A stretch of DNA of 64,000 nucleotides from Malacoraja senta (taxonomy: Eukaryota), in the NCBI GenBank assembly GCA_038087875.1, contig CM075989.1, positions 16,866,001 through 16,930,000 of the forward strand, written 5' to 3'. How positions within the stretch are numbered: the stretch's first letter is position 1; every line of letters begins with the position of its first letter. The notes beneath the pieces are model-generated. The model worked only from the letters and a program-made list of their open reading frames with translations. It made no database searches and had not been told where the DNA came from. Below are positions 4,861 through 46,683 of this stretch, piece by piece. The position numbers were made by a program, and so were the translations under genes.

Positions 4861-5206
4861 AATAATAATAATAATGGATGGGATTTATATAGCGCCTCTC
4901 TAATACTCAAGGCGCTTTACATCGCATTATTCATTCACTCCTCAGTCACACTCGGTGGTGGTGAGCTACTTCTGTAGCCACAGCTGCCCTGGGGCAGACT
5001 GACGGAAGCGTGGCTGCTAATCTGCACCTACGGCCCCTCCGACCACCACCAATCACACACACATTCACACACATTCACACGCAGGCAAAGGTGGGTGAAG
5101 TGTCTTGCCCAAGGACACAATGACAGTATGCACTCCAAGCGGGATTCGAACCGCCTACCTTCCGGTTGACAGCCGAACACTTAGCCCATTGCGCCATCTG
5201 TCGTCC
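4861..5206 (-). mobile_element. tRNA-derived CORE-type SINE with L2-like tail, nested in the DIRS element
   Basis: Minus strand reads: A box TGGCGCAATGG, B box GGTTCGAATCC, CORE-like GTGTCCTTGGGCAAGACACTT, tail GTAAAGCGCCTTGAG..GGCGCTATATAAATCC..(TTA)n. Confidence 0.85.
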
Positions 5207-5735
5207 TAATCCTCCGAGTGCGCGGTCTATGGCGGCCCAGCAGCGGTAGATTCTTCCTGTTTCGCCGCCAATGACCGCAGACTCGTGAGACAGGCCTTTA
5301 AGTTCAAGTCCGTCAGGCCCACGGAGGAGGAGTTCGATCAGGAGGATTCGACTCCAGGGCTGGATACCGCTTTTGAGCGGATTTCTCAAATGGAGAGCCT
5401 GTTACACAGGTTACTCAAGCAAAGCACACTCAGGGAAGAGTGTAGCTAAAGCCAGGCTCCAGAGGCCAGGTCAGCAGCACCTAGCAAAGGGCTGTTTGAG
5501 AGCACCCTCGTTGATGAGGCGCGTGCACAGGGTCAGCAGAGTTTTCCGATACAAGCGAAGACGGCAGCTACCAGATGTTCTATTTCTGGCAGTACGATTC
5601 GCTGCTCTGTGAGAGTTCTGACCCTGAGTCTGACGGTGAGGCCGATACAAGCGAAGACGGCAGCTGCCAGATGTTCTACTCCTGGCAGTATGATTCGCTG
5701 CCCCGTCAGAGTCAGGAGAGCCACTGGGAGAGGAA

Positions 5736-6477
5736 GTGGCCTCTACGATCAACTATTGTGTCTTCCATCAGCTCCAGTGGCTTACGATGGATGAAAATGC
5801 CAAAAAAGCACGAGACCCCAAGGAACTGCGTATTGCTGAAAGTACTAGCAGTGAACCAAGATATAAGGGGTCAGATGGGCGAGGGCATGTGAGCCTAAGA
5901 AAAGTAAACTGCAGAGAATATTGAAGCTGCTGGGTTGAGGAACAACTGCATTTTTGCAAGAACAATGGATGGAGGCCAGGGATGGAGATGCATCAAGTGG
6001 CACTAGGGTTGCTATGTAGCGCCCACTTCGAGATGAATTGTTTCAGGAAGTATGCCATTCGGCCCACCATCAACCCCAAGTTGCAGCAACTCTGTAAAGC
6101 CCAGCATTGTGCAGTCATTCAACTTACTCTTCAGAGAAAAAAAACTCACGAAACGTGGGAAAGAGTTGGATGATGAGGCAAAAACAGCAAGGTTGATCAA
6201 AACATCAATGGTCGGCAAGTCTGTGAAGAGGAGGTATCCTTTCAGACATCATACAAAATCCTGGGCCTACACCAGGAAGAAGTCGACCATTGAAGCAGGG
6301 GCGCAGTTGGTGTCCTGCAGCGGGAACACGAAAAAGCATGGGTTTTCCTGCCAGGAGCCAGGGACCACAGGTCATTCAGGTGACAAAGGAGGTAGGTGGA
6401 CCTGGTTCTCATGGGAACATATTAAGGCAAAAACAGCCAAATATTGGAAGCAAATTACTTCAGATTTATTATTCTGA
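5736..6477 (+). pseudogene. DIRS gag-like ORF1 remnant (frameshifted)
   Basis: Broken ORFs (..YAIRPTINPKLQQLCK.., ..LTKRGKELDDEAK..) at the gag position, upstream of RT within the DIRS element. Confidence 0.55.
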
Positions 6478-6689
6478 GTATTATTTAAAAGGTTTCGAAT
6501 TGATTCGATCAAAATAGTGATTTGCCATCCAGCATGTTCCTAGCAGAACACTCCAATTTCACAAAAAGAAGTGATGGAGGTTCAAGCTGAATTTGAAAAC
6601 TTGTCTATAAACAAGTAATTGAAAGGTTGGTTTATCAAAACCACCAAATTGTGTCTACATTTTCTCGACCTAAAAAGGTGAGTATTTTA

Positions 6690-8187
6690 TATCTGACAAG
6701 TCTTTAAAAATTTGTGAAGTATAGACACTTCAAAATGGAGACTTTGAGACTGCCAAACAACTTATTTCAAAAGATGTTATGTGGCACCTATAGATCTGAA
6801 AGATGTATATTACTTAGTGTCTGTTCATTTGTAAGATAAAAATATTTGAAATTTATCTGAATGAACAATTATGGCAATTCAAAGTTCTGTCTAATAGGTT
6901 AACTTCAGTTCCTAGCATTTCACTAAATTGGTAAAACCAATTTTTGGGGCTAATTAGAGTCCAAGGACAGATGTTGATGGCTTAGCTGAATGATGTCCTA
7001 ATTAGGACGAACAAGAGAATTAGTGAGTTATCTCTCTCAATTGTTCAATCCACTTTTGAAAGTTTTGGGTTTAATTCATCCAGAGAAATCAAGGTTAACG
7101 CCACTTACAACAATTGATTATTTTAATTTTACAATTGACATGGTAGTAATTTTACCCAGGGTAAAGGGTAGAGCTGATTGATGGTTGCATTAAGCTGTTG
7201 AAAAAGCAACAATCTTCAATTAAGACAGGTGGCCAGCTTGCTAGGAAAATTAGTGTTATTTCCAGCAATACAATATGGGCCATTGTACTACCAGCAGCTA
7301 CAGACGGCAAAAAGAAAAGGCACTAGGATGCATGGTGGCCATTTTTGATAGGCCATGCAGTTAAACAACAAATGCTGCTTCTGATTTGCAGTGGTGGATT
7401 TAACATGTCTCCAGTAGTTCGATCAAGATACTGATTGAACAGCCTTCAATGGTCTTACAGACTGATGTCAGTGCATTAGGATTGGTGCCACTGAAATGGT
7501 ATCCATCTGTGGACAGATGGAATTTGGAAGAGGCATTATTTTTTGCAGACATGGAGAATCAACGTTTTACAGCTGTTGGAAGGCTTATGAGCTCCAAGCT
7601 TGTTAATACAACTAATCTGCATGTTCAGCTTCAAATTAACAATACTACAGCAATGGCATGTATTAATCGTATGGGTGGAATGAAGTCGGTATCATGTAAC
7701 AAATTGGCTAATCAAATCTGGACTTGGTGTGTTGACAAATATTTGGTTTCGGCTATTTATCTACCAGGTAGATTCAATATAGTGGCAGACACCAGGTTAC
7801 GGGAATTTCCATAACAGCAAAGATGTTGAATCTTAAGATTTTAATGATATAGTAGTCAGATTTGGGAAGCCAGATACGACTTGTTTCCATCCAGACACAA
7901 TCACCAGTTACAGAGATATGTGTTATGGGAACTACATCGGGAGACAGTAGCGATTGAGGCTTTCTCGCTACATTAGGGTGGTATGTTTTTATATGCATTT
8001 TCCATCATTTTGTCTCATAAACCGGTGTCTGCTTAAAATGAAACGGGATGCTGACTCTGGGGTACTGGTGGTACCTGACTGGTCTACACAGCCATGGTTC
8101 CCTTTGATATTGGAATTAATGACACAGTTTCTGATAAAGGTTCCCAAAAGAAGGGATTTACTGGTGTATCCGATAATTGGAGAGTAA
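6690..8187 (+). pseudogene. DIRS reverse transcriptase / RNase H / N6-adenine methyltransferase-like remnant
   Basis: KFVKYRHFKMETL, IDLKDVYYLVSVH and decayed A*LNDVL (YLDD); RNase H LQTDVSALG and NNTTAMACINRMGG; MT-like HFPSFCLINRCLLKM..VLVVPDWSTQPWFP. Many stops and frameshifts. Confidence 0.85.
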
Positions 8188-8219
8188 CATCCGTTATATG
8201 CCTGTATGGATCTGTTAAT

Positions 8220-9195
8220 TTGCAGGTTTTAAAAAGAGGATTGTCTGGGCATACTGTGGACATGCTTACAGCAGTCTGGCGGAAGAGCACTCAAAAGCAG
8301 TACATTTGCGAATCTGAGGTTGTGACTCTATAAATGCTGCTTTCCCATTATGTAAAGAATGGAAAAAATTTCTGTGTACAAAAGAATATTGAATGTTGTA
8401 CGGCACATGTCTCAAATGTCTTAGGTTTTCTCTACACTCTATTATGAGGGGTTGAGTTATAGTGCAATTTATTCAGCCAGAAGTACATTGTCCTCGTTTT
8501 TTATTGATGAGGTCGGAAAGACATCCTGTTGAGTCTCGTTCTTTCGTTTCCAGATTAATGAAAGGAATTTTAATTCCAGACCTTCTAAACCTAGGTATGG
8601 CAATCTGGAATATAGAGTGGTTTTAAGCTACTTCATCGATTCTGATTTTTGCCAAATTCAGCATGAAGGTAGTCATGCTTATGGCATTTGTAACAAGCAC
8701 AGAGAGTGCAGACATTACAAAAGTTACAGATACACAGGATGGAAGTACCTCAGGATAATGTTATGTTTTACATTTATGACCTACTCAAATGAAGTAGGGT
8801 CAGGTGTGACAGGATTCAAGAATGTTTATTAGCATATTCCATGGATCCATGTCTATGTGTTAAGACATATTTGTTGCAATACATTGAGGCTACAAAGATC
8901 TTATGAAATATGAAAACAAGATTGTTTATCATTCACGAAAAACCTTACAAGATAGTGTCAGTTCAGACTATTTCAAGATGGTTAAAACAAGTCTTGGTTG
9001 CTTCAGGTGTTAACAGTGATGTTTTTACATCCCATTCGATTTAGCAGCAACATCGGCGGCCAGGGCGAAGGACTTCCTGTTGACCATATTCTCGCAGCCG
9101 CCGGGTGATTTAATAAGTTGGTGTTTCAACAGTTTTACCATCGGCCTATTGCCAATACGGGGCTGTTTGCAGAAACTATTTTAAGTTCTGTATAA
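8220..9195 (+). pseudogene. DIRS tyrosine recombinase remnant
   Basis: GLSYSAIYSARSTLSS, QTISRWLKQVL, FTSHSI..AATSAA (HSxR box), DHILAAAG* and FQQFYHRPI (catalytic Tyr region), all with disruptions. Confidence 0.85.
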
Positions 9196-9939
9196 TTTCC
9201 TCTGGTTTAAAGGGGATACTGGTAATTCTATTATTAAAATAAATGAATTACTGCATTTGTCATGCAAATGTCATTATTAATGCATTATTGATTATTTCTC
9301 GTTCCGAGTCAATCAATGCAGTGAGAAGCCGGGATTTGTATCTGCGGCATGAAATCACAAAGCTTTAAAATCTTTACGTAGTCACTCACGTGACTCCGAA
9401 GTAAAATAGTAAGATTAAACGAGAACTTACCAGTTTTGAAGTTTGATCTTTATTTTATGAGGAGTTACGTTGGTGATTACGTGCCCACCACGCCCAACCC
9501 TCTTTCATAAAGGTCAGATGGAAGTTCTAAATTTACTCGTTTTTACTATGTTACTATATTATTTCGTTCTTGTTGTTTGTGATTTCACACCGCTGCTTTG
9601 AAGATTGACGCGCAGGCGCCCTGACGGGTCTTCTTCACGTAATCACCAACGTAACTCCTCATAAAATATAGATCAAACTTCAAACTGGTAAGTTCTCATT
9701 TAATCTTACTATTCTGTTTTCAGGGGAACATAACACAATTGTTCTTCCCGTCTCAGTGGGCAAAATATCATTTATTCAAAATGAAGACCAATTCATTGAC
9801 CAAGGGCTGCCTAGATTCCAAGCCATGGTAGAAAAATGATAACTATCTTTAGAAAGGTGACAATAAAACAACGGATTGCTCTTAGTTATGATAACCTCTC
9901 GTTCACTTGAAATATGAATAAAACAGAGAAGGGATCTCA

Positions 9940-11703
9940 CTAAAACCTACCGGATAGTGAATGGCCTAGATAGGTGGATGTGGAAAGGATGTTTCCAGCA
10001 ATGGGAGAGACTAGAACCAGAGGACACAGCCTCAGAATAAAAGGATGTACTTTCAAAATGTACGAGGAGTTTCTTTCACCAGAGCATGGTGAATCTGTTG
10101 AATTCATTGGTATAGACGACGATGGAGGCCAAGACATTGAGTATTTTTACGGCGGAGATTGATCGGTTCTTGATTAGGAAGGGCATCTAAGGTTACGGGG
10201 AGAAGGTGTTAAACTGAGTTCTTTTGTCAATCTAATTAAAGAAAACTTGATTCAAACACTTGCTGCTGTTGAAATCGATCCTTTATTCAGCGCTGAGACT
10301 AGTCTCTGAACCATCCAACACAGAGTTGAAAGCTCCGGGGCAGGTCTACATAATTAGTGACTCTGGTACAAACTCAAGGCATTATATAGATATTAGACAT
10401 TTCTGATACAGAGGGTATGACAAACTAGTAACCAATCATCTGAGTCCTTCAGGTGATTTACAACAGCAGTCACATGATCCCCCCTTCTCTGGCCTCATTT
10501 TACAACCTTCATTTGCCTGTGGTTTAACTATGTTTAGAATTATTTTATTTCAACAAAGCAAAACCCCAGTAGGCTAATTTATCAAAGACCATTCCTCAAA
10601 ATATAAGATACATATATAATACAATGATCACACAAGTCATACAAACAAAACACACTTTCCATACCAAGAAGAAAGATATTTCTATGAATCTAAACAAGGT
10701 CTAATGTTTACAATCCTACTTAGACACAATACATTTCACAAATGGTTTCACTACAATTTTACACAATTTAAAATACTATTACCTATGTATTAAAAACATT
10801 AATTATATGAGTTTGACGAATTACACAGCTTCTAAGTTAAATTTCAAACCCACACACACCTCGCAACTCCAAGCATACATGGGTCGTAAATCTGTCAACT
10901 TAATTGATGATATGTGTTTTGTGCCAGGATACAGCTTCATTCTACCCTACAGCCTCCCCTTTTCCTGCTATCTCTGGGAGATGGATTTCCAATCTCATCT
11001 GCAAGGCCTTTTACAAATATTACAGAACAAAGGGTAAATTTGCAACTTCAGACCATTACCTCAAAAGTACAGCTGCTTCTTTGACTTTCTATAAACAGGA
11101 TGGTCACAAATCCATCAATCTGATTCTTTCCTCTCGAAGCATCCGATCCCTTATCTCAACCTCATTATAATTAAACATAGCCAAAGCTAACCACGGAGTC
11201 TATTATCTCTCAGCCTTGAATTCTACCTCAAACTCAGCATAAACAGCCATAACTCTTCATCTATATGTCACACTCAAAGCTCAGGAATGTGCCATAGAGA
11301 AAGAGCAGATGACCTCTGGCCTAAGAAGAGGCCCTATTCAGCAATCCATTCTTCAAAACAAAATTATATCAAATATAATTTCCTCCAGTGTTATAATTGC
11401 CTCAAAGCAATAAACTAAGCTAGGCAGGTTCAGATTAGCGTTTCTATGTTTTGATTCATCTGTTCCCTGTATGTGTTTCTATGTACTTTTTTTCTTTAGG
11501 AGACATGTGTTTCTGAAAACCTTAAGCTTTTCTCTTGCAAATTACCTAGCTTATATAAAAGTCACTATCCAAGCGGTTCTATTATATAATATTTCCTCAA
11601 AGGCAGGAGAATGGGGTTGAAAGGGAACAATAGATGATTGAATCCTGGAGTAGACTTGTTGGTCAGAATGGCCTAATTCTGGTCCTATGTGTTATGGTCT
11701 ATG
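9940..11703 (+). mobile_element. CR1 LINE 3' fragment split by a solo LTR
   Basis: ERMFPAMGETRTRGHSLRIKG (CR1 ORF2 C-terminus); the 3' UTR GGGGAGAAGG|CAGGAGAATGGGG resumes at about 11603. Confidence 0.8.
10207..11599 (-). mobile_element. Solo LTR (~1.4 kb), ERV/Gypsy-type
   Basis: TG...CA termini; 4-bp target duplication AAGG at 10203-10206 and 11600-11603; interrupts a contiguous CR1 sequence; AATAAA on the minus strand near 10285. Confidence 0.8.
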
Positions 11704-12243
11704 ATCGCAATGGGCACAAACTTTCAAACTTCCAAATATATCAGCTGTGGTAATGAGTACCAAAGGAATGTTGATGTTTGATGAGATAGTTGTAAATATG
11801 GAACTCTTGCCTCCCATCCATAAAACTTTAAAGTGCCCTGTTCTAAAGTCCAGGGTGAGTGAAGCTTCCTTAAGGATTTGTCACCGTGTTAATAAGATGA
11901 CATATGATGAAAATGCTGATTTGTATGTTTTGTATTATACGCATTGGAAAATTCATGAATCAAGTAAATTTTGAAATAAAATAAATATTAGCCAACTAGG
12001 CAACTGTGTAGAATTAACATCTCTAGTCTGGTTCTGGCTGCACTCTCTGTCGACCTGAGCTCCTCCAACACTGAAATAGAAATGTTCTTGAAGATTTAAT
12101 GTCCAGTGACACTTCATTTAACAAATTCTCATTCTTACTTTCAAGCCTGTTCACTGCCTCGCTGCTCCTTATCTCTGCATCTTCATCCAGCTACAGACAC
12201 CATCTGCACCCACTGCGTCCCACTACCTCTGACCCCTTGTTTA

Positions 12244-12559
12244 ATTTAGTTTAGTTTAGAGATACAGTGTGGAAACAGGCCCTTCGGCCCACCGAATCCG
12301 CGCCGACCAGTGATCCCTGCAAACTAACACTATCCTACACACACTGGGGACAATTTACAATTTACCAAAGCCAATTAACCTACAAACCTGCACGTCTTTG
12401 GAGTGTGGGAGGAAATCAGAGCACCCAGAGAAAATCCACGCGGGTCACGGTCGTGGTCAGGATTGAACCTGGGCAGCCGTGGTCAGCCGTGGTCAGGATT
12501 GAACCTGGGCCTCTAGCGGTGTAAGGCAGCAACTCTACCATTGCGCCACCGTGCTGCCC
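12244..12559 (-). mobile_element. HE1-like tRNA SINE with CR1-like tail
   Basis: Minus strand: GGGCAGCACGGTGGCGCAATGG A box, GGTTCAATCC B box, tail GGGCCGAAGGGCCTGTTTCC..(CTAAA)n. Confidence 0.85.
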
Positions 12560-23714: not shown

Positions 23715-24826
23715 GAAGAATAAGAACCAGTTAATAAAACTAATAAACACTACCTGTGAAGAATTTGGTTTTCTTGATGTCTGGAGGCATTTTCACCCTC
23801 CAGAAAGAGACTATACACATTACTCAACTCAGTTTACTCCAGAATAGACTATTTCTTAATGCAGAAAAGAAGACTGTTATAGGGTAACGGATTGCAGAAT
23901 TGGTGTGGCAGATGTATCAGACCATAATGCCATATACTTAACAATTCAAATGGACAGTAATAGGAAAAACAGTGTGGCGATTAAATGTTGGAATACTAAA
24001 TGATAAAACAACCGTTAATGACATTAAATTGGAAATCAAAAGGTATCTAGAGGAGAATGTTAATGGGGAGGTGCACCCATCCATACTATGGGACTCATTG
24101 AAGGCTGTAGTACGAGGTAGGTTAATAGCTAGGGCATCACATATTAAAAAGGCCAGAAAGAAAACATATAATAAGTTGATACTAGACCTGAAGGATTTAG
24201 AACAGAAGTATGAAAATAATAAGGACCAAAGAACTTATAAACAAATAGAAGATTTGAGAGGACAAATGGATGGAATATTGGGTCAAGAGGTGGAGAAAAA
24301 AGCAAGATTTGTAAAACAGGCACATTATGAGCTAGGCCCTAAATCCACTAAAATACTTGCCCGGAGGCTACGCAAACAACCGGCTGACAACACCAGACAC
24401 AAAATTAAGGACCCCTGTACACAGAAATTGAAGAGTGATCCAAAGGAAATAGAACATATCTTCCAGGAATATTATAAAGAATTATATACACAAACCTCCA
24501 GAGTAGATGGGGAATCAATGAGGACTATTTTAAGTAGAATAGATCTGCCATCTATTGGAGAGACACAAAATAAAATAATCACAGCAGAAATATCGCTGGA
24601 GGAAATGGAGAAGACAATTCGTAGGATGAAAACCAACAAGGGCCCAGGCATCGACGGTTTCCCTATAGAATAGTATAAAATATTTCTGAATGAGCTGAAC
24701 CCACTTCTTCTAAGAACCTTTAACTGGATTATCAAAGAAGGCAAGACACCTCCGTCATGGAAAGAGGCAATTATAATATTAATCCACAAAGAGAACAAGG
24801 AAAATTGTACCAACTGCAGACTGATA
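23508..24826 (+). mobile_element. L1-clade LINE ORF2 fragment (endonuclease to start of RT), cut off at the Helitron
   Basis: DKEGRYIMVKG..LVNIYAP, GGDLN, SRIDYFL, SDHNAI, WRLN, KGPGIDGFPIE; frameshifts and stops. Confidence 0.88.
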
Positions 24827-25211
24827 TCTATCTATCTATATTACTAAAAGTAAGATCTTGACCGCTTTTGACTCACTGCGATGTGATTTCCGAGAGGACG
24901 CCGCCACTTACGGCCGTTATTTTTGGCCAACTCGCACAGAGCCCCCCGCCGCCGGACTGGACTGGAGGATTTTTCCCATCGACGAAATATCTGAGAGATA
25001 TTAATGTTTTAAAATGTTTTGCCATTCGCTCTGCTGCCCCTGCTGGTGGGAGGGGGGAGGGACTATAAAACCCAGAAGTGGTGTGCCTCACTCAGACTCT
25101 GCAAGTTGGAGGAAGCGAGAGGGTCACATCTCTCTGAGCTCTGAATAACACTGAACACATATCTACTCTACTGTGAGTGCCCATAATGTGGTTTGAAAAT
25201 GAAAATATGGA

Positions 25212-25988
25212 TGGTTTGAAGTAAAAAGGCACTGCAAATGGTTGTTTGGGGGTTTTGGGTTGAAGTAAAAAGGCACTGCAAATGGTTGTTTGGGGGGTTT
25301 GGGTTGAAGTAAAAATGCACTGCAAATGGTTCTTTGGGGGTTTTGGGTTGAAGTAAAAAGGCACTGCAAATGGTTGTTTGGGGGTTTTGGCTTGAAGTGA
25401 AAAGGCACTGCAAATGGTTGTTTGTAGGGTTTTGGGTTGAAGTAAAAAGGCACTGCAAATGGTTGTTTGGGGGGTTTTGGGTTGAAGTAAAAAGGCACTG
25501 CAAATGGTTGTTTGGGGTTGAAGAAAAAAGCACTGCAAATGGTTGTTTGGGGTTTTGGGTTGTAGTAAAAAGACACTGCAAATGGTTGTTTGGGGCTTTT
25601 GGGTTGAAGTAAAAAGGCAGTGCAAAGGGTTGTTTCGGGGTTTTCGGTTGAAGTAAAAAGGCACTGCAAAGGGTTGTTTGGGGGTTTTGTGTTGAAGTAA
25701 AAAGGCAGTGCAAAGGGTTGTTTGGGTGTTTTGGGTTGAAGTAAAAAGGCACTGCAAATGGTTGTTTGGGGGTTTTGGGTTGAAGTAAAAAGGCAGAGCA
25801 AAGGGTTGTTTGGGGGTTTTGGGTTGAAGTAAAAAGGCAGTGCAAAGGGTTGTTTGGGGGTTTTGGGTTGAAGTAAAAAGGCAGTGCAAAGGATTGTTTG
25901 GGGATTTTGGGTTGAAGTGAAAAGGAACTGCAAATGGTTGTTTGGGGTTTTTGGGTTGAATTGAAAAGGCACTGCAAATGGTTGTTTG
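25212..25988. repeat. 44-bp minisatellite, about 17-18 copies
   Basis: Unit GAAGTAAAAAGGCACTGCAAATGGTTGTTTGGGGGTTTTGGGTT; successive units start at 25218 and 25262. Confidence 0.95.
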
Positions 25989-26367
25989 TCTAAACTTGAC
26001 AACTTCCTGTTTGCACTATATTGATTTTAGATAAAACGCTGCCACTTACGGCTGTGATTTTTGGCCATCTTACTCAGTCCCCCTCCGCTCATCAGGTGCA
26101 GAGGATTCTTCCCATCAATGAAAAATAAAAGTGTTATTAGTGTTTAAAAAATGTTGAGAATCTCTCCCCTGTCAATCCCGCCATGAAGGCCACACCTTTT
26201 CTGGTGTGAGGGGGAGGGATTATAATACCCGGAAGTGTGGGTGTGGCTCAGTCTCTGCATGATGGGGGAGGGAGAGGTCACGACCCTGTCTGAGCTGTGA
26301 ATCAACTGAATACACTGAATGTCTACTGAACTGTGAGTGTGGTTTTATTATGGTTTTATGGTGGTTT

Positions 26368-26590: not shown

Positions 26591-27147
26591 GGAATTTCAA
26601 GGAATAGCCGAGTCAACTGCCAGCCCACCAGCGGTGAGTGAGCTGCCAGCACATCAGGCTTGAGGGACTGAGCTGCCACCCCAAGAATCCATTTGGCCCA
26701 CAATGTCCATACTAGCCCTCTGGAGACCAGTAGTCCCTACAGCCAACAACACCCATACCAGCGCTCCAGAAAGCCCCGCCCCCCCCTCACTGGCCACCAA
26801 TATTGGAATTGGTGGAGAGGTGCAATATTGCGTCGGGGACCAGCCCTCCAGTGTGAACATGGGACCCAACGGGTCCCACTTAGTCTAGTGTATATATAAA
26901 TGACTTGGCCGTAAACATAGACGGGTTTGTTGGTAAGTTTGAAGATGACACCAAGATTGCTAGGATCGTGGACTGTGAGGTAGGCTGTCAAAGTATATAG
27001 CCGGATAATAGATCGGCAACAGAAATGCGCAGATAACTGGCAGAGAATCCGAGCAAGTCTGAGGTGTTGAATTTATACGTCATGTTGAATGTCGAAAATA
27101 TACATCAATATGCGTAAGCAGCGGGGAAACACTGGCGCGGTAGTGAG

Positions 27148-27196
27148 CAAAGATCCTATAGCGAGCAAGATAGTCCACTCCGCTATAGGATCTTTG
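27148..27196. mobile_element. Tiny MITE-like hairpin (16-bp perfect inverted repeat) just upstream of the BCL2A1-like exon 1
   Basis: CAAAGATCCTATAGCG ... CGCTATAGGATCTTTG; related termini at about 20770 and 57013-57046. Confidence 0.6.
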
Positions 27197-27262: not shown

Positions 27263-27705
27263 ATGCAAGCGCCTGAAATGATTATGGGCTGCGAACATCC
27301 AAACTCGGAGGGGTTCTGCTACTTACTGGCGTTGGATTATTTCCGCTTTGTGCTAGACGGCTCGGAGTCGCAGCCGGCGGCCAACAGAGCGGCTGAAACT
27401 CTGCGCCGCTCCGGCTCCTCGTTGCCTGCAGACGGCCAGGAATTACAGCGCTGCGTCGACAAATTAAACCTGGGGTCCGTGGAAGAGACGAAGTGAGTGC
27501 TCCCGACTTAATGATAGAGGTCTACTCGGACGGGATTGATAACTGGGACAGGATTGTAACTTTGTACACTTTCTGTGGGGACCTGGTCAGGCACTTGATA
27601 GAGAAGGGCGTACTTTATCGAGTGCTGATAGAACAGGTAGCTCAGTTTGTCGTCCAATACACTTGGACTCACAAAGCTGCGTGGATCAAGGAGAATGGAG
27701 GCTGG
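27263..27705 (+). pseudogene. BCL2A1: BCL2A1 (A1/BFL-1)-like pseudogene, exon 1
   Basis: CYLLALDYFRFVL resembles A1 YRLAQDYLQCVL; LQRCVDKLNLGSVEE resembles LKSCLDNVNVVSVDT; BH1 EVYSDGIDNWDRIVTLYTF; BH2 WIKENGGW followed by a GT donor at 27706. In-frame TGA at 27494-27496 and a 1-nt frameshift just after. Start ATG uncertain (27263, 27278 or 27284). Confidence 0.82.
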
Positions 27706-28943
27706 GTAGGAGGAAGATTTTGATCAAAAGTGTTCTGGAAGTCCATGTCCTTCTTCGAAGGCAGTCCCTCGGAATTGAGGATGACTTGATAACACTCTGG
27801 TTTTGTGGTTGTGAAGTAGTTAATGAGGCTTGTCTGAAAACTGCTGTCTTTATGCAAGAGGCAGCTGATGAGGCAGGTAGATAATTTCTGTCATCTGCCT
27901 CTTGCACAGTGCCTCTGTGTGCTCCTGATCCATACCCTTGAGGTTCTCAGTAGCATCCCAAATACTGCTTCTCTGCTTTGGACAGCCATGGGTCAGAGGC
28001 ATCTAAGAGTCAGTGCAAATGTTGCACTTCCTCAAAGATCCCTGAATCTACCCCTCTGTCTGTTTGGTACATCACATCTACTTTATTATCTTCACCAAAT
28101 CCATCTTTCACCACATCAAACATAATTAAGCCTGACCTGGCTTGTTTAATGCATTTCCAACAGGCAAAAATTAATCCTATCATGGATTAATGCCTCGAAT
28201 TGAAGACAGATGGAAAGTTCTCATTTAGTACCTTAACACATTTGTGCACAGGTTTTCATTTTTTGCCCTCAGTAGTCCTCACTCGTCCACATACCCCACA
28301 TCATCACAATACCACAATATTTAGATTATCAAAGGAAAAGGAGACAAAATTAAAGTTGGCCTCTCTGCATCTTAAGGAAACACCATTAGAGGGAATGTGT
28401 GATCGCCAGGGAGAGGAAGAAAAGTAGGCAGGTAGTTGGGGAAGTATCAGAGTACATGCCACTCTGGAAACTCTTCCGATGTTGGAAAACAGTCGGGATG
28501 CATGCTTCTTTGTGGAGTACAACTGAACCAAAATCGTGGTGAGTGATTCAGCTGCACAAGGGAAAGAACAGGAGCACAAGGGCATTAATGGTAGGAGACT
28601 TGATAGTGATACCTGAAATTTGATATTGACCCTGGAAGGCTGCACTGTGTTCAGAAGGAAGATGAGGCACTGAACATCTTCAGAGATGCTGCCTGTCCCG
28701 CTGAGTTACTCCAGCATTTTGTGTTTACCTGAGGCACTGAAGTGTTCATTCACCCCATTACTGTAGTCCCTGAAGCCCCGATGTCCGTTGTAACGCAAAA
28801 ACAATGGCTATTGTACATTTTAATTTCATCGTATCCATTCCATGCTTTATCATACCCAACATCTATTCCCACAGGCCTGATATTTTTCAGGAGTGTAGCA
28901 ATTGATATTTAATATTGTGGCTAATCTTGCGCGCACTTTTCAG

Positions 28944-29054
28944 GATGGATACAGATCTGGTTAGAAGAGGAAAAGCTGATTGATATAGTCTCAGTTGTTC
29001 ACAGGTTTTACCTCCTGGAGAAAGTATATTCATGAATTATGCTGCAAAGAATAA
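28944..29054 (+). pseudogene. BCL2A1: Putative exon 2 of the BCL2A1-like pseudogene
   Basis: Acceptor CACTTTTCAG|; phase-0 reading DGYRSG*KRKS*LI*SQLFTGFTSWRKYIHELCCKE*. Length and position fit the A1 C-terminal exon; three internal stops. Confidence 0.5.
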
Positions 29055-35235: not shown

Positions 35236-35633
35236 TTAGACTGAATGACATATGAGAAATCCCTTGAAGCTGATCGATCCATCCGAGCTCCAGAGTGTTC
35301 CTCTTTCAAGCTGGACCCACACAGTGTCGCACGGGCGGAGTTCCAATATGGCATTCTGGACAGCGAGCTGGCTGCTATTACTTGGCAGCGCACTGTGGAT
35401 TTCACTGACTCTTTTATTATTCTTCATCAGGACCACATCAGTCTTAACCCCTCTCCTTGGCAGAGAAGAAAAACTGAAGAAGTATGTACCAGCAAGAGGG
35501 CTTTTGAACTTCCCAGTGTTTTTCTTGTAACCTCCGGCTTTGTTGAGATTGACCTTATCATAAATAATGGTCACGTTGGACACAATCAGATGATTCAGTG
35601 AGCTACGCTCTACGTCAAACATCACGTTGTTGC
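35236..35633 (-). CDS. Terminal exon encoding a globular C1q domain (C1q/TNF-related, cerebellin-like secreted protein family)
   Basis: IIYDKVNLNKAGGY..TGKFKSPLAGTYFFSF..AILELRPCDTVWVQL..ISFKGFLI carries the gC1q signature. Acceptor TTTTTACTTTCACAG| (phase 1) at 35634; frame open to TAA at 35236. Confidence 0.85.
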
Positions 35634-37774
35634 CTGTGAAAGTAAAAATCGAAGATTGAACCTAATGGCAATATGACTACTTTTATTGTCTCACCTTATT
35701 GATGATGTAAAGATTAAAGTGTAGAGCACAAACCACTTTGTATAAAAGCAAACAAAATTCAAACAATTTGAGGCAATTGACTCTTGGATTGGAAATGGAA
35801 AAGTGCAAATCACATTCTAGAGCATTTAATTATGGGGAGTTGTGGGTTATTCAAAGGGAAGGCATTGAATACTGAGGAAAAAAAAAAATGGGCAGCATTT
35901 ATAGAGTCAATGGCCCGGGCAGCGTTTAGCTGCATTCCTGTAACAGACTACAGAATTGCATTTCAGAACGGCAAAGTTGAAGCTTCCTGAGGAACCAAAG
36001 GGATCAGAGTAGGTGAATCAGTAAGGGAGAGAAGTGGGCGTACAACAGATGTTGGGTTAATAATACAGGTGAAACCAGGTTGAATACGAAAAGATTAGAG
36101 GGGAAAATGAAAAAGCATATAAAAGATAATACATGGACAGTCAACATAAATGAAGCTTCTATAGAGTAAATTAAGAAAATTCCCCTTGGTTGAAATGTCA
36201 GGATCCAGAAAAAATATAAACTTCTTTAAAGCAGAAATTAGTGATGACCTGAAATGCATTATCCTCAATAGCGTGCGGACAGGAGATTTGGTCATGTTTA
36301 TCACAAAAAAAATTGGAGAACTATTTGAAGGAACAATGTTTCCAAGCCCAAGAAAGGAGCCAATGGATCAGTCTATCACAAGTACTCCTCGAAGAATTTG
36401 AACTGGATTGGATGGATTAAATGTCCTTTTTGTGCTGGAATGAGTTACTTCCAGTTTATGGATCTGGCAGGTTGTTGCAGAGTAAATCTACGCCTAAAAA
36501 AGACACAGAGTGCCAGAATAACTCAGTGGATCAGGCAGCATCCCTGGAGAACATGGATAGGTGACATTTTGGGCCAGGACCCTTAGTACTAATTGTAGGT
36601 TTATCATCTCTAGCCTTTGTCCAACTATCTGCCAATCAAACCCCCGCCTCGCTTATGTTTACCAATTTACTATGTTTACCATGATTTGTCATTTCCCCTC
36701 CTCTCTTCCAGGTTTCCCTCCCTCTCCCACACCCCTAAAAAAAGTCAGTTTGAAGAAGAATCCCGACCCGCTGAGTTACTCCAGCACTTTGTGTCTTTTT
36801 CTATAGACCAACAACTTGTTTCTAAATCTACTCCTTTTCCCACCCCATTACAACAATCAGCCTGTTTCCTAATCTCATGAAAGCATCCTCTTTACTTATT
36901 CCAGTGTTAACATTCAGTCTATTTGCAACCAATTAGTCTTACCTCTGTCTGCTTGGTCTTGCATTTAGGTGCATTAGATTAAATGTGGAACTGGACTGAA
37001 ACTAACCAAACATCACACCCCAACAGCTACACGAGGCTTTCATCCAATTTATTTGGGGTTGAGTCAAACACTAAAGTGAAAGGAAACTTATGTCCTCTAG
37101 CAACATTCAGATACCTTTTTTGGGTTGAATATCCAACCGTGGACTGATCCCATTCCACATTTTCACAGAACTCAAACAGCTCCGACAGTCTAAAGAGGAA
37201 GCCTACAGGAGTGGGGATGCAGACCGCTACAGGCAGGCAAAGTACAAGCTGAGAAGAGGAATCAGAGCTGCCAAGATAAGATACTCTGAGAAGTTGAGGA
37301 GCAAGTTCTCAGATAGTGACTCTTCTTCAGTTTGGAAGGGCTTACAAGAAATCACCAGCTACAAGAGGAAAGCCCCCCTTTCTTTGGACAATCGTCAGCT
37401 GACCAACAACCTGAATTAGTTCTACTGCAGGTTTGACAAGCAGAAACTTAACCCTGGTACGCCCTCCCCAACCAACACAGCCAGATCCCCTTCCACACCC
37501 ATTCTTCCCCAATTACCACTTAACACCTACTTAAATAAAGACTCCAGTTTGAAAAGACTGGACACTTTCCCACCCCAACCAACACTTCACACCCACTCTC
37601 AGCCTGACCCCCTCCATGCAAAGACTGGACCCATCTACATCCACTGCTCCCCAAGCACCACTTCACACCTACTTAAAGCAATGGACTCTTTCCCACCCAC
37701 CCCTCTCCAATCACCACTTAACACCCAATTACTGCACTGACTGACTGCAAAAGACTGCAGCCTCGTCCACTACC

Positions 37775-40700
37775 CACCCCCTCCGTGCTGCACAACATCG
37801 GGGTGACGATGTTTCCAGTCCGAGTGGCGGACATGTCGGTGGCTCCAATCCTAGAGATGGGACTCGACCGGCGAGACCGACATCGGGCAGAGCCCTAGTG
37901 GTGGGTGACTCCATTGTCCGAGGAGCGGACAGGAGATTCTGTGGCGGCAGACGAGATGCGAGGATGGTCTGTTGCCTCCCTGGTGCCAGGGTTCAGGATG
38001 TCACGAGCCGAATTCAGAACATCCTCGAGAGAGAGAAGGTGAATAGCCGGCAGTAGTTGTGCACGTAGGCACAAACGACATCGGGAAGAAGAGGAAGGAG
38101 GTTCTCCAACATGAGTTCAGAGAGTTGGGAAGAAGACTGAAATGCCGGACTTCTAGGGTGGTTATCTCTGGGTTGCTTCCAGTACCTCGTGCTAGTGAGG
38201 ACAGGAACAGGGAGATAGGGGGTCTGAATGTGTGGCTGAGGGGCTGGAGCAGGGAGCAAGGATTTAGATTTATAGACCACTGGGATCTCTTCTGGGGTAG
38301 GGGTGACCTGTACAAAAGGGACGGGTTACATCTTAACTGGAGGGGGACCGACATTCTGGCAGGCAGGTTTGCTAGGGCTACACGTGTGGGTTTAAACTAA
38401 ATAGTGGGGAGGAGGGATTGACAAATTGGGAGTATAAAGATGGAGTTGAAGGGGAAGTGGCTACAGGAAAAATTACAAAAGATTCTCGAATTAATGGGAA
38501 GGAAAGCTCGAGAAGGGACAACAGAGTAAGGTCAGGGCCAATTGTGGGCGGTGCGAGGGGGGAAGTGAATACGGAGGTCAAAGTGCTGTATATGAATGCG
38601 CGAAGTATAAGGAATAAAGTGGACGAGCTTGAGGCTCAGTTAGAAACTGGCAAGTATGATGTTGTGGGAATTGTTGAGACATGGCTGCAAGAGGGCCAGG
38701 GCTGGGAACTGAATATTCAAGGGTATACCTCCTATCGAAAAGACAGACAGGTGGGCAGAGGAGGTGGGGTTGCTCTGTTGGTGAGGAATGAAATTCAATC
38801 CCTTGCAAGGGGTGACATTGAAACAGGAGATGTGGAGTCAGTATGGATAGAACTAAGGAATTGTAAAGGTAAAAAGACCCTAATGGGACTAATCTACTTG
38901 CCCCCAAACAGTAGCCTGGACATAGGGCACAAGTTGAATCAGGAGTTAAAATTGGCATGTAGCAAAAGTAATGCTGTGGTTGTTATGGGAGATTTCAACA
39001 TGCAGGTAGACTGGGAAAATCAGGTTGGTACTGGACCCCAAGAAAGGGACTTTGTAGAGTGCCTTCGTGATGGATTCTTAGAACAGCTTGTATTAGAGCC
39101 TACCAGGGAGAAGGCAATTCTGGAGTTAGTGTTATGTAATGAACCGGATTTGATAAAGGACCTCGGGTTAATGAGCCATTACGAGGTAGTGACCATAACA
39201 TGGTCATGTTTAATCTACAATTGGTGAGGGAGAAGGGTAGATCGGAGGTGTCAGTGTTACAGTTGAATAAAGGGGACTATACAGGCATGAGGGAGGAGCT
39301 GGCCAAAGTTGACTGGAAAGATACACTAGCAGGGATGAGAGTGGAACAAAAATGGCAGGTATTTCTAGGAATAATACAGAAGGTGCAGGATCAGTTCATT
39401 CCTTTATTTTTTCTTTTTTTTTTAAATTTATTTTTGTTAGAAGTAAGTACAATAATGTGGTACCACAGTACCTAATACTTGTTGACATATTACATTTCAT
39501 ATACAACTTCTTATTTTTAATTTAATAATAAAGCAGGAGTAAGGGAGAAAGGGAGAAAAGAAGAGATTGGCATAGAGTGTTGCGTGAAATAGAAAGATAG
39601 CCCGAGATGATCAGCCATGATCATATTGAATGGCGGTGCAGGCTCGAAGGGCCGAATGGCCTACTCCTGCACCTATTTTCTATGTTTCTATGCTTCTATG
39701 AGAGAAGAAAGAAGAAAGAAGAAGAAGTAGAAAGAGAAAGAGACGAAATAGAGAAGAAAAAAAAGGGAAAAGGAGATTGAAAGCGATATACCTATTTAAT
39801 GTTCCTGGCCACCCGTCACCTGATTCTATGGTTGTGTTGCACCATATGCTTGTAAGAAGTCGATAAAAGGAGACCAAATCAATAAGAATTGGTCTACTTT
39901 ACCTGCTAGAAGGAGTCGCATTTCTTCAAGATATGCCGTTTCCGACATATTTGAAATCCACATTTGGAGCGTTGGTGTTGGCGCATTTTTCCAAAATTTA
40001 AGTATGAGTTTTTTTGCCGTTATTAAACCGTAATTAAGTAGAGATTTTTTAAACATATTTAGCTTATTCCCATCTTCCATTGATCCAAAGATAATCCTTT
40101 CTGTATTAGGTTCAATTCTTCTATTAAATAGTTTTGTAAAAATTTCATTCCAGAATTTATGAAGTTTTATACAGGAGACAAAAAAGTGTGTTATAGTGGC
40201 ACTCAACTAAGCATTTATCACAGATGGGAGAGATATTTGGATAGATTTTGTTCAGTCTAGTTTTCGAGTAGTATAATCTATGTCAAATTTTAAATTGAAT
40301 TAAATTATGTTTTGCATTAATCTAACATTTATGTATGTATATCAGGTTTTTTTCCCATGTTTCTTTCGAAATTTTTATCTGTAATTCTCGTTCCCAATCT
40401 GCTCTGATTGCCTCTGTCGATGGTGATTCTGTATTTAAAATATTATATAAGTATGATATTAAATTGCATGAATCTGCCTTAATATTCATTGCTTCATCTA
40501 ATAAATCTAGTTAGAATTTGATATCCTTGTATGTGTTTTTTCAAATAATCTCTAATTTGAAAGTATTTAAAGTATTGGTTATTTTTCGTTGTATTTTAAT
40601 TGTAATTGTTGAAATGATTTAAAAAATTCCCATTTTATACAAGTCTCCAATCCTTTTAATTCCTAATCTTTCCCAATAGGTATACGTTTTGTTAGTGAGA

Positions 40701-43330
40701 GATGGTTTAAATGCGGGATTATTTACTATTGGAGATAAAAGCGATAAGTTTCTTAATTTCAAAGTTAGTTTTATTTGTTTCCAAATTCGAATTGTGTTGT
40801 GGATAATTGGGTTCTTCTTATATATTGTGTTGTTTAATTTTATCGGGAGGATCGCTCCTATATTAAAAGGAGAGCAATCCTCTTTCTCCATTCTTATCCA
40901 TTCTACCTGTTGGGCAGAGCTGTCCAACCAATAAATTATGTTTTTAATATGTACTGCCCAGTAGTAGTATAAAACGTTCGGGAGTGTCAATCCCCCAGAT
41001 TCTTTAGGTTTACACAGGTGTTTTCTTTGGATTCTGTGCGATCTGTAGTGCCATATGAAGTTTGTAATATTGGAGTCTAATTTTTTTAAGAAGTTTTTTG
41101 GTAAGTATATTGGTATTGATTGAAATAGATATAATATTTGTGGTAGAAAAATCATTTTTATAGCTATTCTACCTATTAAAGATCGGCAGGGTTTTCCAGA
41201 ATTTAATCAACGCATTCAATTTAGTTAATAAAGGCATAAAATTTGCATTAAATAGCGATTTATATTTTCTAGTAATTTGGATACCCAAATACTTGAATTT
41301 TTCTGTTGCAATTTTAAAGGGAAATTTTAACAGGTGTGTCGAGTCTTAGGGTTTTAACGTCATAATTTCACTTTTATTCCAATTCATTCCTAGGAGGAAG
41401 AAATTCCAAGGGGAGAAAGGGGTGACCATGGCTGACAAGGGACGTCAGGGACAGTATAAAAATTAAAGCGAAGAAGTACAACGTAGCAAAGATGAGCGGG
41501 AAGCAAGAGGATTGGGTAATGTTTAAAGAACAACAGAAGATAACCAAAAAGGCAATACGGGGAGAAAAGATGCGGTACGAAGGTAAGCTAGCCAAGAATA
41601 TAAAGCAGGATAGTAAAAGCATCTTCAGGTATGTGAAGAGGAAAAAATTAGTTAAGACCAAAGTTGGACCTTTGAAGACCGAAGAAGGTGAATTTATTAT
41701 GGGGAACAAGGAAATGGCAGATGAGTTGAACAGGTACTTTGGATCTGTCTTCACTAAGGAGGACACAAACAAACTTCCTGATATAGTAGTGGCCAGAGGA
41801 TCTGGGGTGACGGAGGAACTGAAGGAAATCCACATTAGGCAGAAAATGGTGTAGGATAGACTGATGCGACTGAAGGCTGATAAATCCCCACGGCCTGATG
41901 GTCTGCATCCCAGGGTACTTAAGGAAGTGGCTCTAGAAATCGTGGATGCATTAGTGATAATTTTCCAATGTTCTATAGACTCAGGATCAGTTCCTGTGGA
42001 TTGGAGGGTAGCTAATGTTATCCCATTTTTTAAGAAAGGCAGGAGAGAGAAAACAGGGAATTATAGACCAGTTAGCCTGACATCGGTCGTGGGGAAGATG
42101 CTGGAGTCAATTATAAAAGATGAAATAGCCGAACATTTGGATAGCAGTAACAGGATCGGTCCGAGTCAGCATGGATTTATGCTTCACTAATCTTCTGGAA
42201 TTTTTTGAAGATGTAACTAGGAAAATGGACAACTGAGAGCCAGTGAATGTAGTGTACCTGGACTTTCAGAAAGCTTTTGATAACGGGTCCCTTTCAGAAT
42301 GGCAGGCAGTGACTAGTGGGGTACCACAAGGCTCGGTGCTGGGACCGCAGCTATTTACAATATACATCAATGATTTGGATGAAGGGATTCAAAGTAACAT
42401 TAGCATATTTGCAGATGACACAAAGCTGGGTGGCAGTGTGAACTGTGAGGAGGATGCTATGAGAATGCAGGGTGACTTGGACAGGTTGGGGGAGTGGGCA
42501 GATGCATAGCAGATGAAGTTTGATGCGGATAAATGTGAGGTTATCCACTTTGGTAGCAAAAACAGGAAGACATATTACTATCTAAATGGCGTCAAGTTGG
42601 GAAATGGGGAAGTACAACGGGATCTGGGGGTCCTTGTTCATCAGTCTATGAAAGTAAGCATGCAGGTACAGCAGGCAGAGAAGAAAGTGAATGGCATGTT
42701 GGCTTTCATAACAAGAGGAATCGAATATAGGAGCAAAGAGGTCCTTCTGCAGTTGTACAGAGCCCTAGTGAGACCACACCTGGAGTATTGTGTGCAGTTT
42801 TGGTCCCCTAATTTGAGGAGGGACATTCTTGCTATTGAGGTAGTGCAGCGTAGGTTTACAAGGTTAATTCCCGGGATTGTGGGGCTGTCATATGCTGAGA
42901 GAATGGAGCAGCTGGGCTTGTACACTCTGGAGTTTAGAAGGATGAGAGGGAATCTCATTGAAACATATAAGATTGTTAAGGGTTTGGACACGCTTGAGGC
43001 AGGAAACATGTTCCCGATGTTGGGGGAGTCCAGAACCAGGGGCCACAGTTTAAGAATAAGGAGTAAGCCATTCAGAATGGAGACGAGAAAACACTTTTTC
43101 TCACAGAGTTGTGAATCTGTGGAATTCTCTGCCTCAGAGGGCGGTGGAGGCAGGTTCTCTGGATGCTTTCAAGAGAGAGCTAGATAGGGCTCTTAAAAAT
43201 AACAGAGTCAGGGGATATGGGGAGAAGGCAGGAACGGGGTAATGATTGGGGATGATCAGCCATGATCACAATGAATGGCGGTGCTGGTTCGAAGGGCCGA
43301 ATGGCCTACTCCTGCACCTATTGTCTATTG
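37775..43330 (+). mobile_element. Near full-length CR1 LINE (ORF1 SGNH esterase; ORF2 EN+RT), decayed and interrupted by an L1
   Basis: ORF1 VVGDSIVRG, HVGTNDI, DGLHLN; ORF2 [43 protein letters not shown]; tail CCTATTGTCTATTG. Confidence 0.92.
39404..41382 (-). mobile_element. L1-clade LINE 3' portion inserted antisense in the CR1; itself carries a short CR1 tail at about 39601-39695
   Basis: Poly(T) at about 39404-39435; target duplication TTCATTCCT at 39395-39403 and 41383-41391; minus-strand FKYLGIQI, LPQILYLFQSIP, GGLTLPN..YYWA. Confidence 0.88.
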
Positions 43331-44249
43331 TCCATCACTTCTCCATCATTAACAATATAAATAGAGGAGGTGGACAGACTGTTCAAAAGACAGAAAAGCC
43401 CAAATCTCCAGGACCAGACAATGTTTCCCCCTCTACTCTCAAGCTCTGTGCCGAACAACTGGCACCGGTCTACACAGACATTTTCAACCAGTCCCTGCAA
43501 ACCTGTACTGTCCCTGCCTGCTACAAAGTCTCCACTATTGTCCCTGTACCCAAAAAGGCAAATATTACTGGTCTTAGTGACTACAGGCCTGTCGCACTGA
43601 CCTCTGTAGTCATGAAGACCCTTGAAAGGCTTGTGCTGGCAAAGCTGCCACAGCCAGACATAAAAACAGCTTTTTTTCCACGAATGGTAGCTCTACTCAA
43701 TAACCAAAAATCTGTAGCCTCCTTTTGCTCTGGTATTTTATTTAATTCACAAGTTTAATTGATAATGTTTTATTATTAATGTTTAATGTTTTATGTGTCT
43801 TTCCCTAACTGACACTGTATGTCATGTTGTCACTTGCGGGGGGAGCACCAAGGCAAATTCCTTGTATGTGAATACTTGGCCAATAATCTTATTCATTCAT
43901 TTATCATCTGGAGTAGGGCCAACGACCACCAGTTAGAAAGTGGAATGGAATGGATTTCCTCCCATTCCTACCTGGAATTAGTTATGGTGTCATTATTATT
44001 ATTGACACGAGATGAATATGTTTTATTAACTCATGAATTAACTCATGGTTGAAACAATTCGTTATACCCACAACTTTTTTTTCGCCAAAGAAAACTCACC
44101 TCCACACGTATTATCATTTCTCATTTTGGGATTTACCATTTGAGCCTGGTGCAGTGGTTTCACATCCATTTCTTCATCAGGTGTTTTCTGAACCATTCAA
44201 ATAATTGGAAGAAAACTCATCAATTGTTTAGGCCATTCATTCATAAAGC

Positions 44250-44306
44250 ATCAATCAATCAATCAATCAATCAAGCAATTAATTAATTAATTAATTAATT
44301 AATTAA
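44250..44306. repeat. Compound microsatellite (ATCA)n(AATT)n
   Basis: Directly visible. Confidence 0.9.
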
Positions 44307-46459
44307 TCCGTAATTGTTTTTTTTGCCAAGAGTCATTTTGGAAGATCTTAACACTTTAAACCGTACAATGCAAAATTACGTTTGAAACTTTAACACAAGA
44401 TATATTTGGCTTCTGTGATGGTTTATGTAAAACGTATATTGCAGAGGAAATGATGTGAACTGGAAGGGACACGACCATGAAGAAATTCAAATAATAGAAT
44501 GATAACATAAATGGAAGATGTTGGGGATCCACAGTCAATGAACAAGGATAGGATTGGTGGGTGAGTTAGAGTAGAGGGTGAAATAAGATGTATAGATAAA
44601 AAGAGAGTGAGAGAGGAAGAAAGAGTTGCAGTAAGGTGCAAAAGGAGAATAAAGATGTAGAAGGAGGGAAGGAGCATAGGAACAGATGCAAAACAAGAGA
44701 AAGGATGGGATGAAACAGTAAAAGATCATGAAGCAAACTGATCAGATACAGAACGGTGATATCAGAGCAAAGATAAATAATTGGACAATCAAAGAATAGC
44801 AGGAACAGAGAGATGAAGGTAAAGAGTGCAAAATGAACTGGAGTATTGTGACCGTAAGGGGGGAAAGCAGAGAAAGAAATAACTGGTGTAATTCAACTGG
44901 AGTATTAGAAAATACATATAATTAATTTTCTATCCTTACCAGAATATCTTCCAGATGATCGTCCAAAGTGCTCGATTGATAGATACAGTAAAAGAGGATC
45001 AAATACAGCAGGTTTCCCTGAAATAAAATAAAACATCCTTTCACTTGGGCAAAAAGAACCACATTTGTTAAACATTGCCAATACAACTTCACGTACCATT
45101 TTGATCAGAGCAGCTTTCTTCTCTCCAACTTCTTGTTCAGCCAATGTGTTTGGTCTTCAGGTCGTTTGGTTTATAACTCCTTCTGTTTCACACATTTGAA
45201 GTATCGCCAAATGAGGTTTGGTAATATTTTGGTGCTTCCTCCAAATATGTCGTAAGTCCAGCCTCCAAAGTAGCAAACCCAGAGTCAGTATCATTCTTGC
45301 TGATGAATCATCCCTAAATGTTTATGAACATGTTGCTGAGTTTGCCAACTCGAGGCACTGTCCTGAACAAATCGAGGGCCATACGGGCATCTGAGAAGAA
45401 TGGTGTTGTTGTCACTTCACACATGCACACACAAAATAATCCTCGCATCTTCATCCTGAGTCCTAGCTTCCAGTTCTTGGAATCATTTCGTTGGTACTTC
45501 TGTAGCTTTTGCTTTTCTGTCCACTTCTGACTTGTTTCTTCTGTTATATCACAAACAGAGCCAGGGGTAAACTATTTGGGCTTCAATCCTGCTCCACTAT
45601 TCATTCAAAATAATGATTGATCTTTCTCCTGCATTATGTCAATATCCCTTAATATCCAGAAATCTATTCTCTGAACACAAGTAAGCAACTGCTAAGAAAA
45701 TAATTAAACAATAAAGTACATTAAAGTAGATTAAAATGTTATTTCCACAATTTTGTTAATAGTAAACTTGATGTTCCCTTGATCTTTATACATTATAATA
45801 ATGTTTCATGAAGTATGACGTACTGTTAAACATCTTGAGATTATGAAAAGCCCTCTAATTCCAAGATATTTTTCTTGAATACTTTTTTAGCTTCACGTTT
45901 TCTAGAACCAATAATAATCTCACTTCTTGCTTGCCTTAGAAAAGCTTGTATTCCCCAAAAGTGTGTCTTTTCTGTTTTTATTGCAGCTTTACAGTATCTG
46001 CGGTTTCTTACTTTAAGAATAGAGGACAAGGCTTTGTTGGATTCTTTTTTAAAGTTGCGTGGAGCCTCTTCTATACGGTCCCATTAAATGCTTCCAGATC
46101 ATCATCATGGTGAAAGGAGTCTATTTGAGGGCAACAATAAAAACTTTTGTTATTCTTAACTTGAAACAACTCCTGAAATATTTCACAACAGCTTTATTAA
46201 ACAAGACTTGATATTTATATTACTACCTTAAACTTCCTATTCTTTTGCATTCAGTAAAAGTCACACAGATGTAGTACAAAAATATTTGATATCAACCCAT
46301 GCAACAAATGAAAAAAGAAAGACAGGGGTTTGCTTGTTCAAGTTCCTCAGCTGGACACTCTCTTCTGACATGTAGTTCGGTGTTTTTTTTTAACCTTCAT
46401 ATGGTTATGTACTTAATATTCTTTCTCTTTCAACTTAATATTCTTGCTCTTTCAAACAG

Positions 46460-46683
46460 GAGGCCTTGATCTGATCCTGATGCCTGGACTGGAGTTCGAT
46501 AAACATGGCAACAGATTGGGAAGAAGGAAGGGTTACTATGACACTTACTGGGACTGTTGTCTTAAGCATCCAAAGGACAAACCCTACACAATTGCCTTGG
46601 CCTTCAAGGAGCAGATATGTGATCTGGTGCTTGTGACTGAAAGTGATAAGCCAATTGATGAAGTATTGTATGAAACATCGTAG
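46460..46683 (+). pseudogene. MTHFS: MTHFS (5-formyltetrahydrofolate cyclo-ligase) last coding exon, orphan and probably degenerate
   Basis: [55 protein letters not shown] matches the MTHFS C-terminus. Polypyrimidine acceptor ..TTCAAACAG| (phase 1); AATAAA downstream. Family motifs PGLGFD and RLGRGKGYYD are altered. No upstream exons seen. Identity is high-confidence; pseudogene status is inferred. Confidence 0.8.

Follow-up and report, generated by a model that had tools for sequence, protein, structure and literature searches.

The locus and its genes

The window analysed here, a stretch of 64,000 nucleotides of the skate Malacoraja senta (C13:16866001-16930000), contains on its forward strand the first exon of a BCL2A1 gene (27263..27705), assigned by its reading frames, PDB ranking, Pfam and a phylogenetic tree. 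This exon, hereafter copy B, is one of three tandem copies, the others being copy A upstream (C13:16817125, 76 kb from copy B at 16893263) and copy C downstream (16957753). No fourth exon 1 was found in the genome, with two N gaps present in the block (16824124 and 16929144). Some 61% of the window can be aligned to other parts of the region, and the aligned flanks differ between units by 4.5-4.7% (7,750 columns). The preliminary description, made from the letters alone, had placed the host among the cartilaginous fish, and the nearest proteins indeed come from skates (Amblyraja and Leucoraja).

MTHFS is broken in unit B, where exon 2 is deleted and the last exon is orphaned (46460..46683, forward strand, by unit alignment and Pfam). 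It is also broken in unit C, by a 2-nt deletion in exon 2 and a 24-nt deletion in exon 3; its exon 1 was not found in units A, B and C and may be hidden in the N gap at 16824124. On the reverse strand, in MTHFS intron 2, lies a gene for a predicted secreted C1q-domain protein (35236..45017; exons 45017-44940, 44187-44100 and 35633-35236). Pieces of the window at 5344-9715 and 355-12315 align at 89-95% to C13:16.780-16.785 Mb, near a zf-A20 gene, and to 17.02 Mb, so that a history of three clean units is too simple. An array of ~44-bp repeats (window 25092-26026) recurs both ahead of copy C and, in inverted orientation, at C13:16.970-16.972 Mb, and decayed retroelement-like frames occur at window 23942-24673, 38047-43187 and 60144-62454.

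In contigs of the public run X1, depth is ~97-100 for exon 1, 45.5 for a stretch present in A and C only and 22.8 for the contig of exon 2, which agrees with 3, 2 and 1 copies, respectively, with the reservation that contig depth is a poor measure of copy number and that X1 may be the assembled sample and hence not independent. Exon 1 letters of the B/C and A types stand at 65:35 in this run (about 2:1). Contigs of another run, X24, matched repeats only and have no bearing on expression.

Exon 1 of copy B and its lesions

Exon 1 of copy B runs from the ATG at 27263 to the TGG at 27703-27705, followed directly by a GT donor (27706-27707); a further ATG lies upstream in the same frame, at 27236. 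We confirm that, as had been proposed by joining two frames, 27263-27705 is a single Bcl-2 exon 1 with its donor after the BH2 tryptophan. The top PDB match of its 3' half is A1/BFL-1 (E 2.9e-10), and all five PDB matches of the 5' half, weak as they are (E 0.3-0.5), are also to A1. The Pfam Bcl-2 score of the exon is 57.4 bits; a Pfam search with the N-terminal half alone gave no match.

The exon 1 lesions read from the letters are present in the assembly. An in-frame TGA stands at 27494..27496, where copies A and C read CGA, and probably arose by a CpG transition. One C is missing from a run that reads CCCC in A and C (27502..27504). This 1-nt deletion may be an error of the assembly, lying as it does in a homopolymer and in a stretch prone to errors; the TGA appears less doubtful, as no substitution errors were seen in the unit A contigs. 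In BH1, a G>A change at 27548 has turned NWGR into NWDR (27547..27549), a change common to copy C, and D is the majority letter in the X1 contigs. NWDR by itself is no proof of the death of copy B, since the equivalent change in Bcl-xL, G138A, impairs binding of Bax and not that of BAD, according to the available part of a preprint (bioRxiv 10.64898/2026.06.23.733989). Set against a pro-survival Bcl-2 protein, whose open frame runs through the NWGR of BH1 and BH2 to a C-terminal helix, copy B has a TGA at codon 78, a frameshift, NWDR and no exon 2. Six substitutions within 12 nt (CDS 350-361, window ~27611-27622) also split B and C from A; their clustering suggests that they may be a single complex mutation, and the residues that they produce recur in a duplicate in Amblyraja.

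Orthology of the gene

The gene had been taken for BCL2A1 rather than MCL1 or BCL2L10, and the family tree proposed as a check bears this out. Shark and ray A1 sequences, copy B included, group with amniote A1 with a support of 94 in FastTree (171 rows) and of 100/99 in IQ-TREE (38 rows), the 38 rows being chosen from the 171 and clade names coming from the 20 of 150 representatives that were looked up. There is no grouping with MCL1 or BCL2L10/NR13, whose rows are placed elsewhere, nor with BCL2/BCL-xL, and the genome has a separate NR13/BCL2L10-like gene (C13:19.15 Mb). The order at the locus is FAH (reverse strand, 16.746 Mb), the zf-A20 gene (reverse strand, 16.787 Mb), BCL2A1 and MTHFS (both forward). 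This matches the chicken order FAH, ZFAND6, BCL2A1, MTHFS, as given in the available text of PMC7597553, and together with the tree it identifies the skate gene as a BCL2A1 orthologue. From its position rather than its sequence, we infer that the zf-A20 gene is ZFAND6 and not ZFAND5. A search for the TMED family gave a C13 member at 8.0 Mb and no support for synteny. That the gene is instead a relative of MCL1 or BCL2L10/NR13 might be argued from its identity to amniote A1 of only ~30-35%, yet the support of 100/99 with A1, the PDB ranking, the synteny and the separate NR13-like gene 2.3 Mb away make this vanishingly improbable, and we consider it already ruled out by the tree plus synteny. 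Elsewhere in the genome, two identical Bcl-2-family exon matches lie on C5 (12.90 and 13.02 Mb), 120 kb apart and in opposite orientation, and a further one on a small contig.

On these sequence comparisons we regard it as settled that the shark and ray proteins annotated as 'A1-like' are true BCL2A1 orthologues and that A1 dates to the jawed-vertebrate ancestor, an age that had been suggested earlier and that tree and synteny support. We know of no A1 in teleosts. At the database level shark and ray A1 is not new, the annotations being public at NCBI in 13 named clusters. We found no paper stating its orthology or its jawed-vertebrate age; supplements of genome papers, which lie outside our search, may list such genes, and the available portions of PMC9876281, PMC7022251, PMC13303787 and PMC4632309 make no mention of shark A1.

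Loss of exon 2

The sequence proposed earlier as exon 2 (28944..29054, forward strand) turned out by alignment and a shuffle test to be copied MTHFS intron 2 DNA, 95-96% identical to the corresponding DNA in units A and C. When it is compared with four genuine A1 exon 2 peptides, scores as high are reached by 179-701 of 1000 shuffles, and at the DNA level by 357 of 1000. The three internal stops counted in it are there, but the sequence that contains them is not exon 2. It lies close to exon 1 because a deletion of ~12 kb, seen only in B, brought it there: the junction (28350..28353, forward strand, by unit alignment) marks the loss of a segment that spans ~12.2 kb in unit A and contains MTHFS exon 2.

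The true exon 2 is at C13:16820118-16820231, 2.55 kb behind exon 1 of copy A, and the C-terminal peptide of the relatives matches 16820118-16820228 only. Searches of the whole genome, which has the two N gaps in the block, found no second exon 2. In both B and C a deletion of 3,125 bp joins A:16817589 to A:16820715 and removes the intron, exon 2 and the 3' end; the junction, common to copy C, has 5 bp of microhomology in the window (27723..27727, forward strand). The layout of two exons with the intron after the BH2 tryptophan is thus that of copy A, whereas B has the donor and its exon 2 is gone. This deletion is the main lesion of copy B and was overlooked by the preliminary description; as B and C lack exon 2 through the same event, B is dead whatever its point lesions. 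As a genomic copy with flanks and the start of the intron, near its parent, B is a duplicated (non-processed) pseudogene.

If B were live and its lesions assembly errors, or if the triplication itself were an artefact of assembly, the indel errors and the two N gaps of the region would be the grounds. We hold this to be extremely unlikely and already largely refuted, as there is no exon 2 behind B and depth gives exon 2 a single copy, the units are 4.6% apart with two allele classes at ~2:1 in X1, and the derived residues recur in a duplicate in Amblyraja.

Copy A as the probable working gene

In the assembly all three exon-1-bearing copies are broken, copy A by a 1-nt deletion in exon 1 at 16817338. 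We nevertheless hold with high confidence, from comparison with public contigs and relatives, that the frame of copy A is intact and that this indel is likely an assembly error. Among the matches listed for run X1, six of eight contigs fit unit A over 3,666 nt without a single substitution but with 5 gaps, a rate of indel discrepancies of ~1.4 per kb; the other two carry B/C-type letters. A homopolymer frameshift in MTHFS exon 2 of unit A (C13 ~16825800), ~8 kb from exon 1 of copy A, is absent in contigs of runs X1, X18 and X19. It is an assembly error, and frameshift calls in the region are unsafe. Copy A retains NWGR and a GT-AG phase-0 intron, and the protein of its exon 2 is identical to that of Amblyraja. 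In runs X18 and X19, from related organisms, contigs are joined exactly across the intron of copy A, and the X19 contig holds an extra base at the frameshift position; both runs are guessed to be RNA, X19 being flagged 'probably DNA', though the exact exon joint favours RNA. Discrepancies of indels only, the corrected MTHFS frameshift and the splicing in relatives together argue that copy A is probably intact. The same error rate makes the 1-nt deletion of copy B doubtful, but neither its TGA nor its loss of exon 2.

A lineage-wide loss, with a real frameshift in A and the skate left without a working BCL2A1, would fit the deletion in the assembly, the lack of a fourth copy among those found in the genome, and the single X1 contig over the frameshift site, a collapse that carries B/C letters and from which the allele of A is absent. 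It is unlikely in view of the error pattern of unit A and the frameshift corrected 8 kb away; moreover, A has no further lesion, both of its private indels near the start are CC -> C, and related skates have full-length A1. Of the two fates offered earlier for copy B, a dead duplicate or the lost gene of the lineage, the first therefore stands, and the second is unlikely given that copy A is probably intact. The case is a caution against calling gene loss where the sole complete copy looks frameshifted, here probably by assembly error.

Decay and probable gene conversion of the extra copies

The dN/dS ratio of exon 1 is ~1.0 for A-B and A-C, and 6 replacement changes and 0 silent ones separate B from C; on these few sites, exon 1 of B and C is free of purifying selection and evolves neutrally. 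B and C are only 1.6% apart in exon 1, and both have the exon 2 deletion, a 49-bp hairpin element, a cut-off upstream region, and P55 and D96, marks that point to one duplicate having decayed and then been copied again. The hairpin mini-element (27148..27196, B and C only), which we take to be hAT-like, lies upstream of the ATG and has 16-bp inverted ends and a near-perfect 8-bp flanking duplication. Its exact ends occur at 10 sites in the genome, against 0 for the control; the 8 further sites elsewhere in the genome are of 37-39 bp. Within 1 kb upstream, only copy A of the three has a match to what we take to be the NF-kB consensus; the window keeps a decayed counterpart of this predicted site (27123..27132, forward strand).

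The 132-aa A1-like protein of Amblyraja radiata (XP_032905994.1) has D107, L118, Y119, V121 and F129 in common with B and C. It is a second copy, on a contig equal in length to that of the full gene. Unlike B and C, it retains NWGR and stops at residue 132, and its 5' part agrees with the parent gene of its own species; it could be a chimeric model. The five shared derived residues indicate that the first duplication probably predates the divergence of this skate and the Amblyraja lineage. Between the two species, residues 24, 73 and 87 group by species and residues 107, 118, 119, 121 and 129 by paralogue, and within this genome the 5' part of exon 1 has 5-7 differences in 383 sites against 4.5-4.7% in the flanks (p 0.0005-0.003). 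This pattern suggests that, within a species, the copies are homogenised over the 5' part of exon 1 by gene conversion. Low divergence is also seen outside exon 1, in one flank window where A and B are identical over 380 sites, so that conversion probably extends beyond the exon; the constraint on copy A would itself lower exon 1 divergence.

One might speculate that the truncated copies are functional, copy C through a 153-residue read-through or a BCL2A1-MTHFS read-through acting as a modulator, and B as a regulatory or conversion reservoir. Exon 1 of C is open, B and C are close in exon 1, Amblyraja has its annotated 132-aa copy, and both exons are phase 0, as in the mammalian BCL2A1-MTHFS chimera. 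Yet all B-C changes are replacements, the copies stop at different places in the two species, MTHFS exons 2 and 3 of unit C have their deletions, and the upstream region with the kB-type site is lost, with B stopping at codon 78; a function of this kind is thus very unlikely. Read into the intron, exon 1 of copy C would give 153 residues with NWDR; splicing from its donor to MTHFS exon 2, on the pattern of the mammalian chimera, is conceivable in principle.

A C1q-domain gene nested in MTHFS

The predicted protein of the nested gene has a hydrophobic leader, a short spacer and one globular C1q domain, with no collagen. Its counterparts in the other two units lie at C13:16837234-16839866 and 16978252-16983461, and the spliced frames are open in all three units (187-191 residues over the three exons found); a start-codon exon was searched for and not found. 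Three more relatives cluster on C9 (38.9-39.1 Mb).

Identity of the C1q domain between units is 70-76%, against ~95% in the flanks. In the leader exon 1-2 of 66 bases differ, against 8-23 per 100 in the C1q exon, where the divergence has sharp edges. Replacement divergence in the C1q exon is 13-17%, against 4.6% in the flanks (p 1e-16 to 5e-9), and dN/dS is 1.2-1.8. Diversifying selection is our preferred reading of this divergence. The exons may alternatively be older paralogues whose flanks have been homogenised, as two of the three pairs also have elevated silent divergence and dN/dS is not significant against the silent sites of the exon itself (Fisher p 0.12-0.41). The C1q-domain gene, open in all three units and fast-diverging, may account for the retention of the block. 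In a broader form, skates would have a secreted C1q recognition family in the MTHFS intron, selection on which drove the duplication of the block, with the dead BCL2A1 dragged along and still converting with the live gene; we put this forward tentatively, as possible rather than probable. A literature search on a nested C1q-domain gene found nothing.

A proposed history of the block

We hold with good confidence that copy B is a non-processed BCL2A1 pseudogene without exon 2, in a triplicated skate block whose likely working gene is copy A, with the following history. One duplicate would have arisen by unequal crossing-over, keeping only ~100 bp upstream of the ATG. It would then have gained the mini-element, lost exon 2 via the 3,125-bp microhomology-flanked deletion and been recopied to give B and C. 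Copy B would afterwards have gained the TGA, the 1-nt deletion and the 12-kb deletion into MTHFS, all seen in the assembly. Translation of copy B would end after 77 residues, short of BH1, and a read-through would still be without the C-terminal helix and the BH1 glycine. Gene conversion would keep the 5' part of exon 1 alike among the copies of a species, and the extra blocks would be kept for the nested C1q-domain gene, with the BCL2A1 and MTHFS copies as passengers. Copy B is thus an ordinary pseudogene of an already annotated gene. The nested gene is the more promising lead, as a candidate for a rapidly evolving immune or recognition protein of skates.

Comparison with known systems

Copy B belongs to the same clade as the A1 or A1-like proteins of Amblyraja (XP_032906148.1), Leucoraja (XP_055517145.1), Pristis and Rhinoraja, among others, and pieces of its exon 1 show 79-93% identity to Amblyraja A1. 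It differs from these shark and ray proteins by its stop, its frameshift, NWDR and the missing exon 2. The closest parallel to the cluster is that of mouse A1, described in the available text of PMC3405526 as A1-a, A1-b and A1-d with a frameshifted pseudogene, A1-c. There too, tandem duplicates are ~96% alike, have the two-exon layout and include one frameshifted pseudogene, but the mouse cluster is an independent event and has kept three working copies (PMC3405526, same portion). In the skate, by contrast, both extra copies are without exon 2, and the duplicated unit includes MTHFS and the nested C1q gene.

With its leader, spacer and single globular C1q domain, the product predicted from this nested gene resembles cerebellin-like collagen-less proteins. 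It is 80% identical to an Amblyraja 'C1q tumor necrosis factor-related protein 3-like', and Rhinoraja also has such proteins. What sets the gene apart here is its presence in three nested copies that diverge in the C1q exon alone. The two C1q copies of Rhinoraja group together, which points to separate duplication or separate homogenisation.
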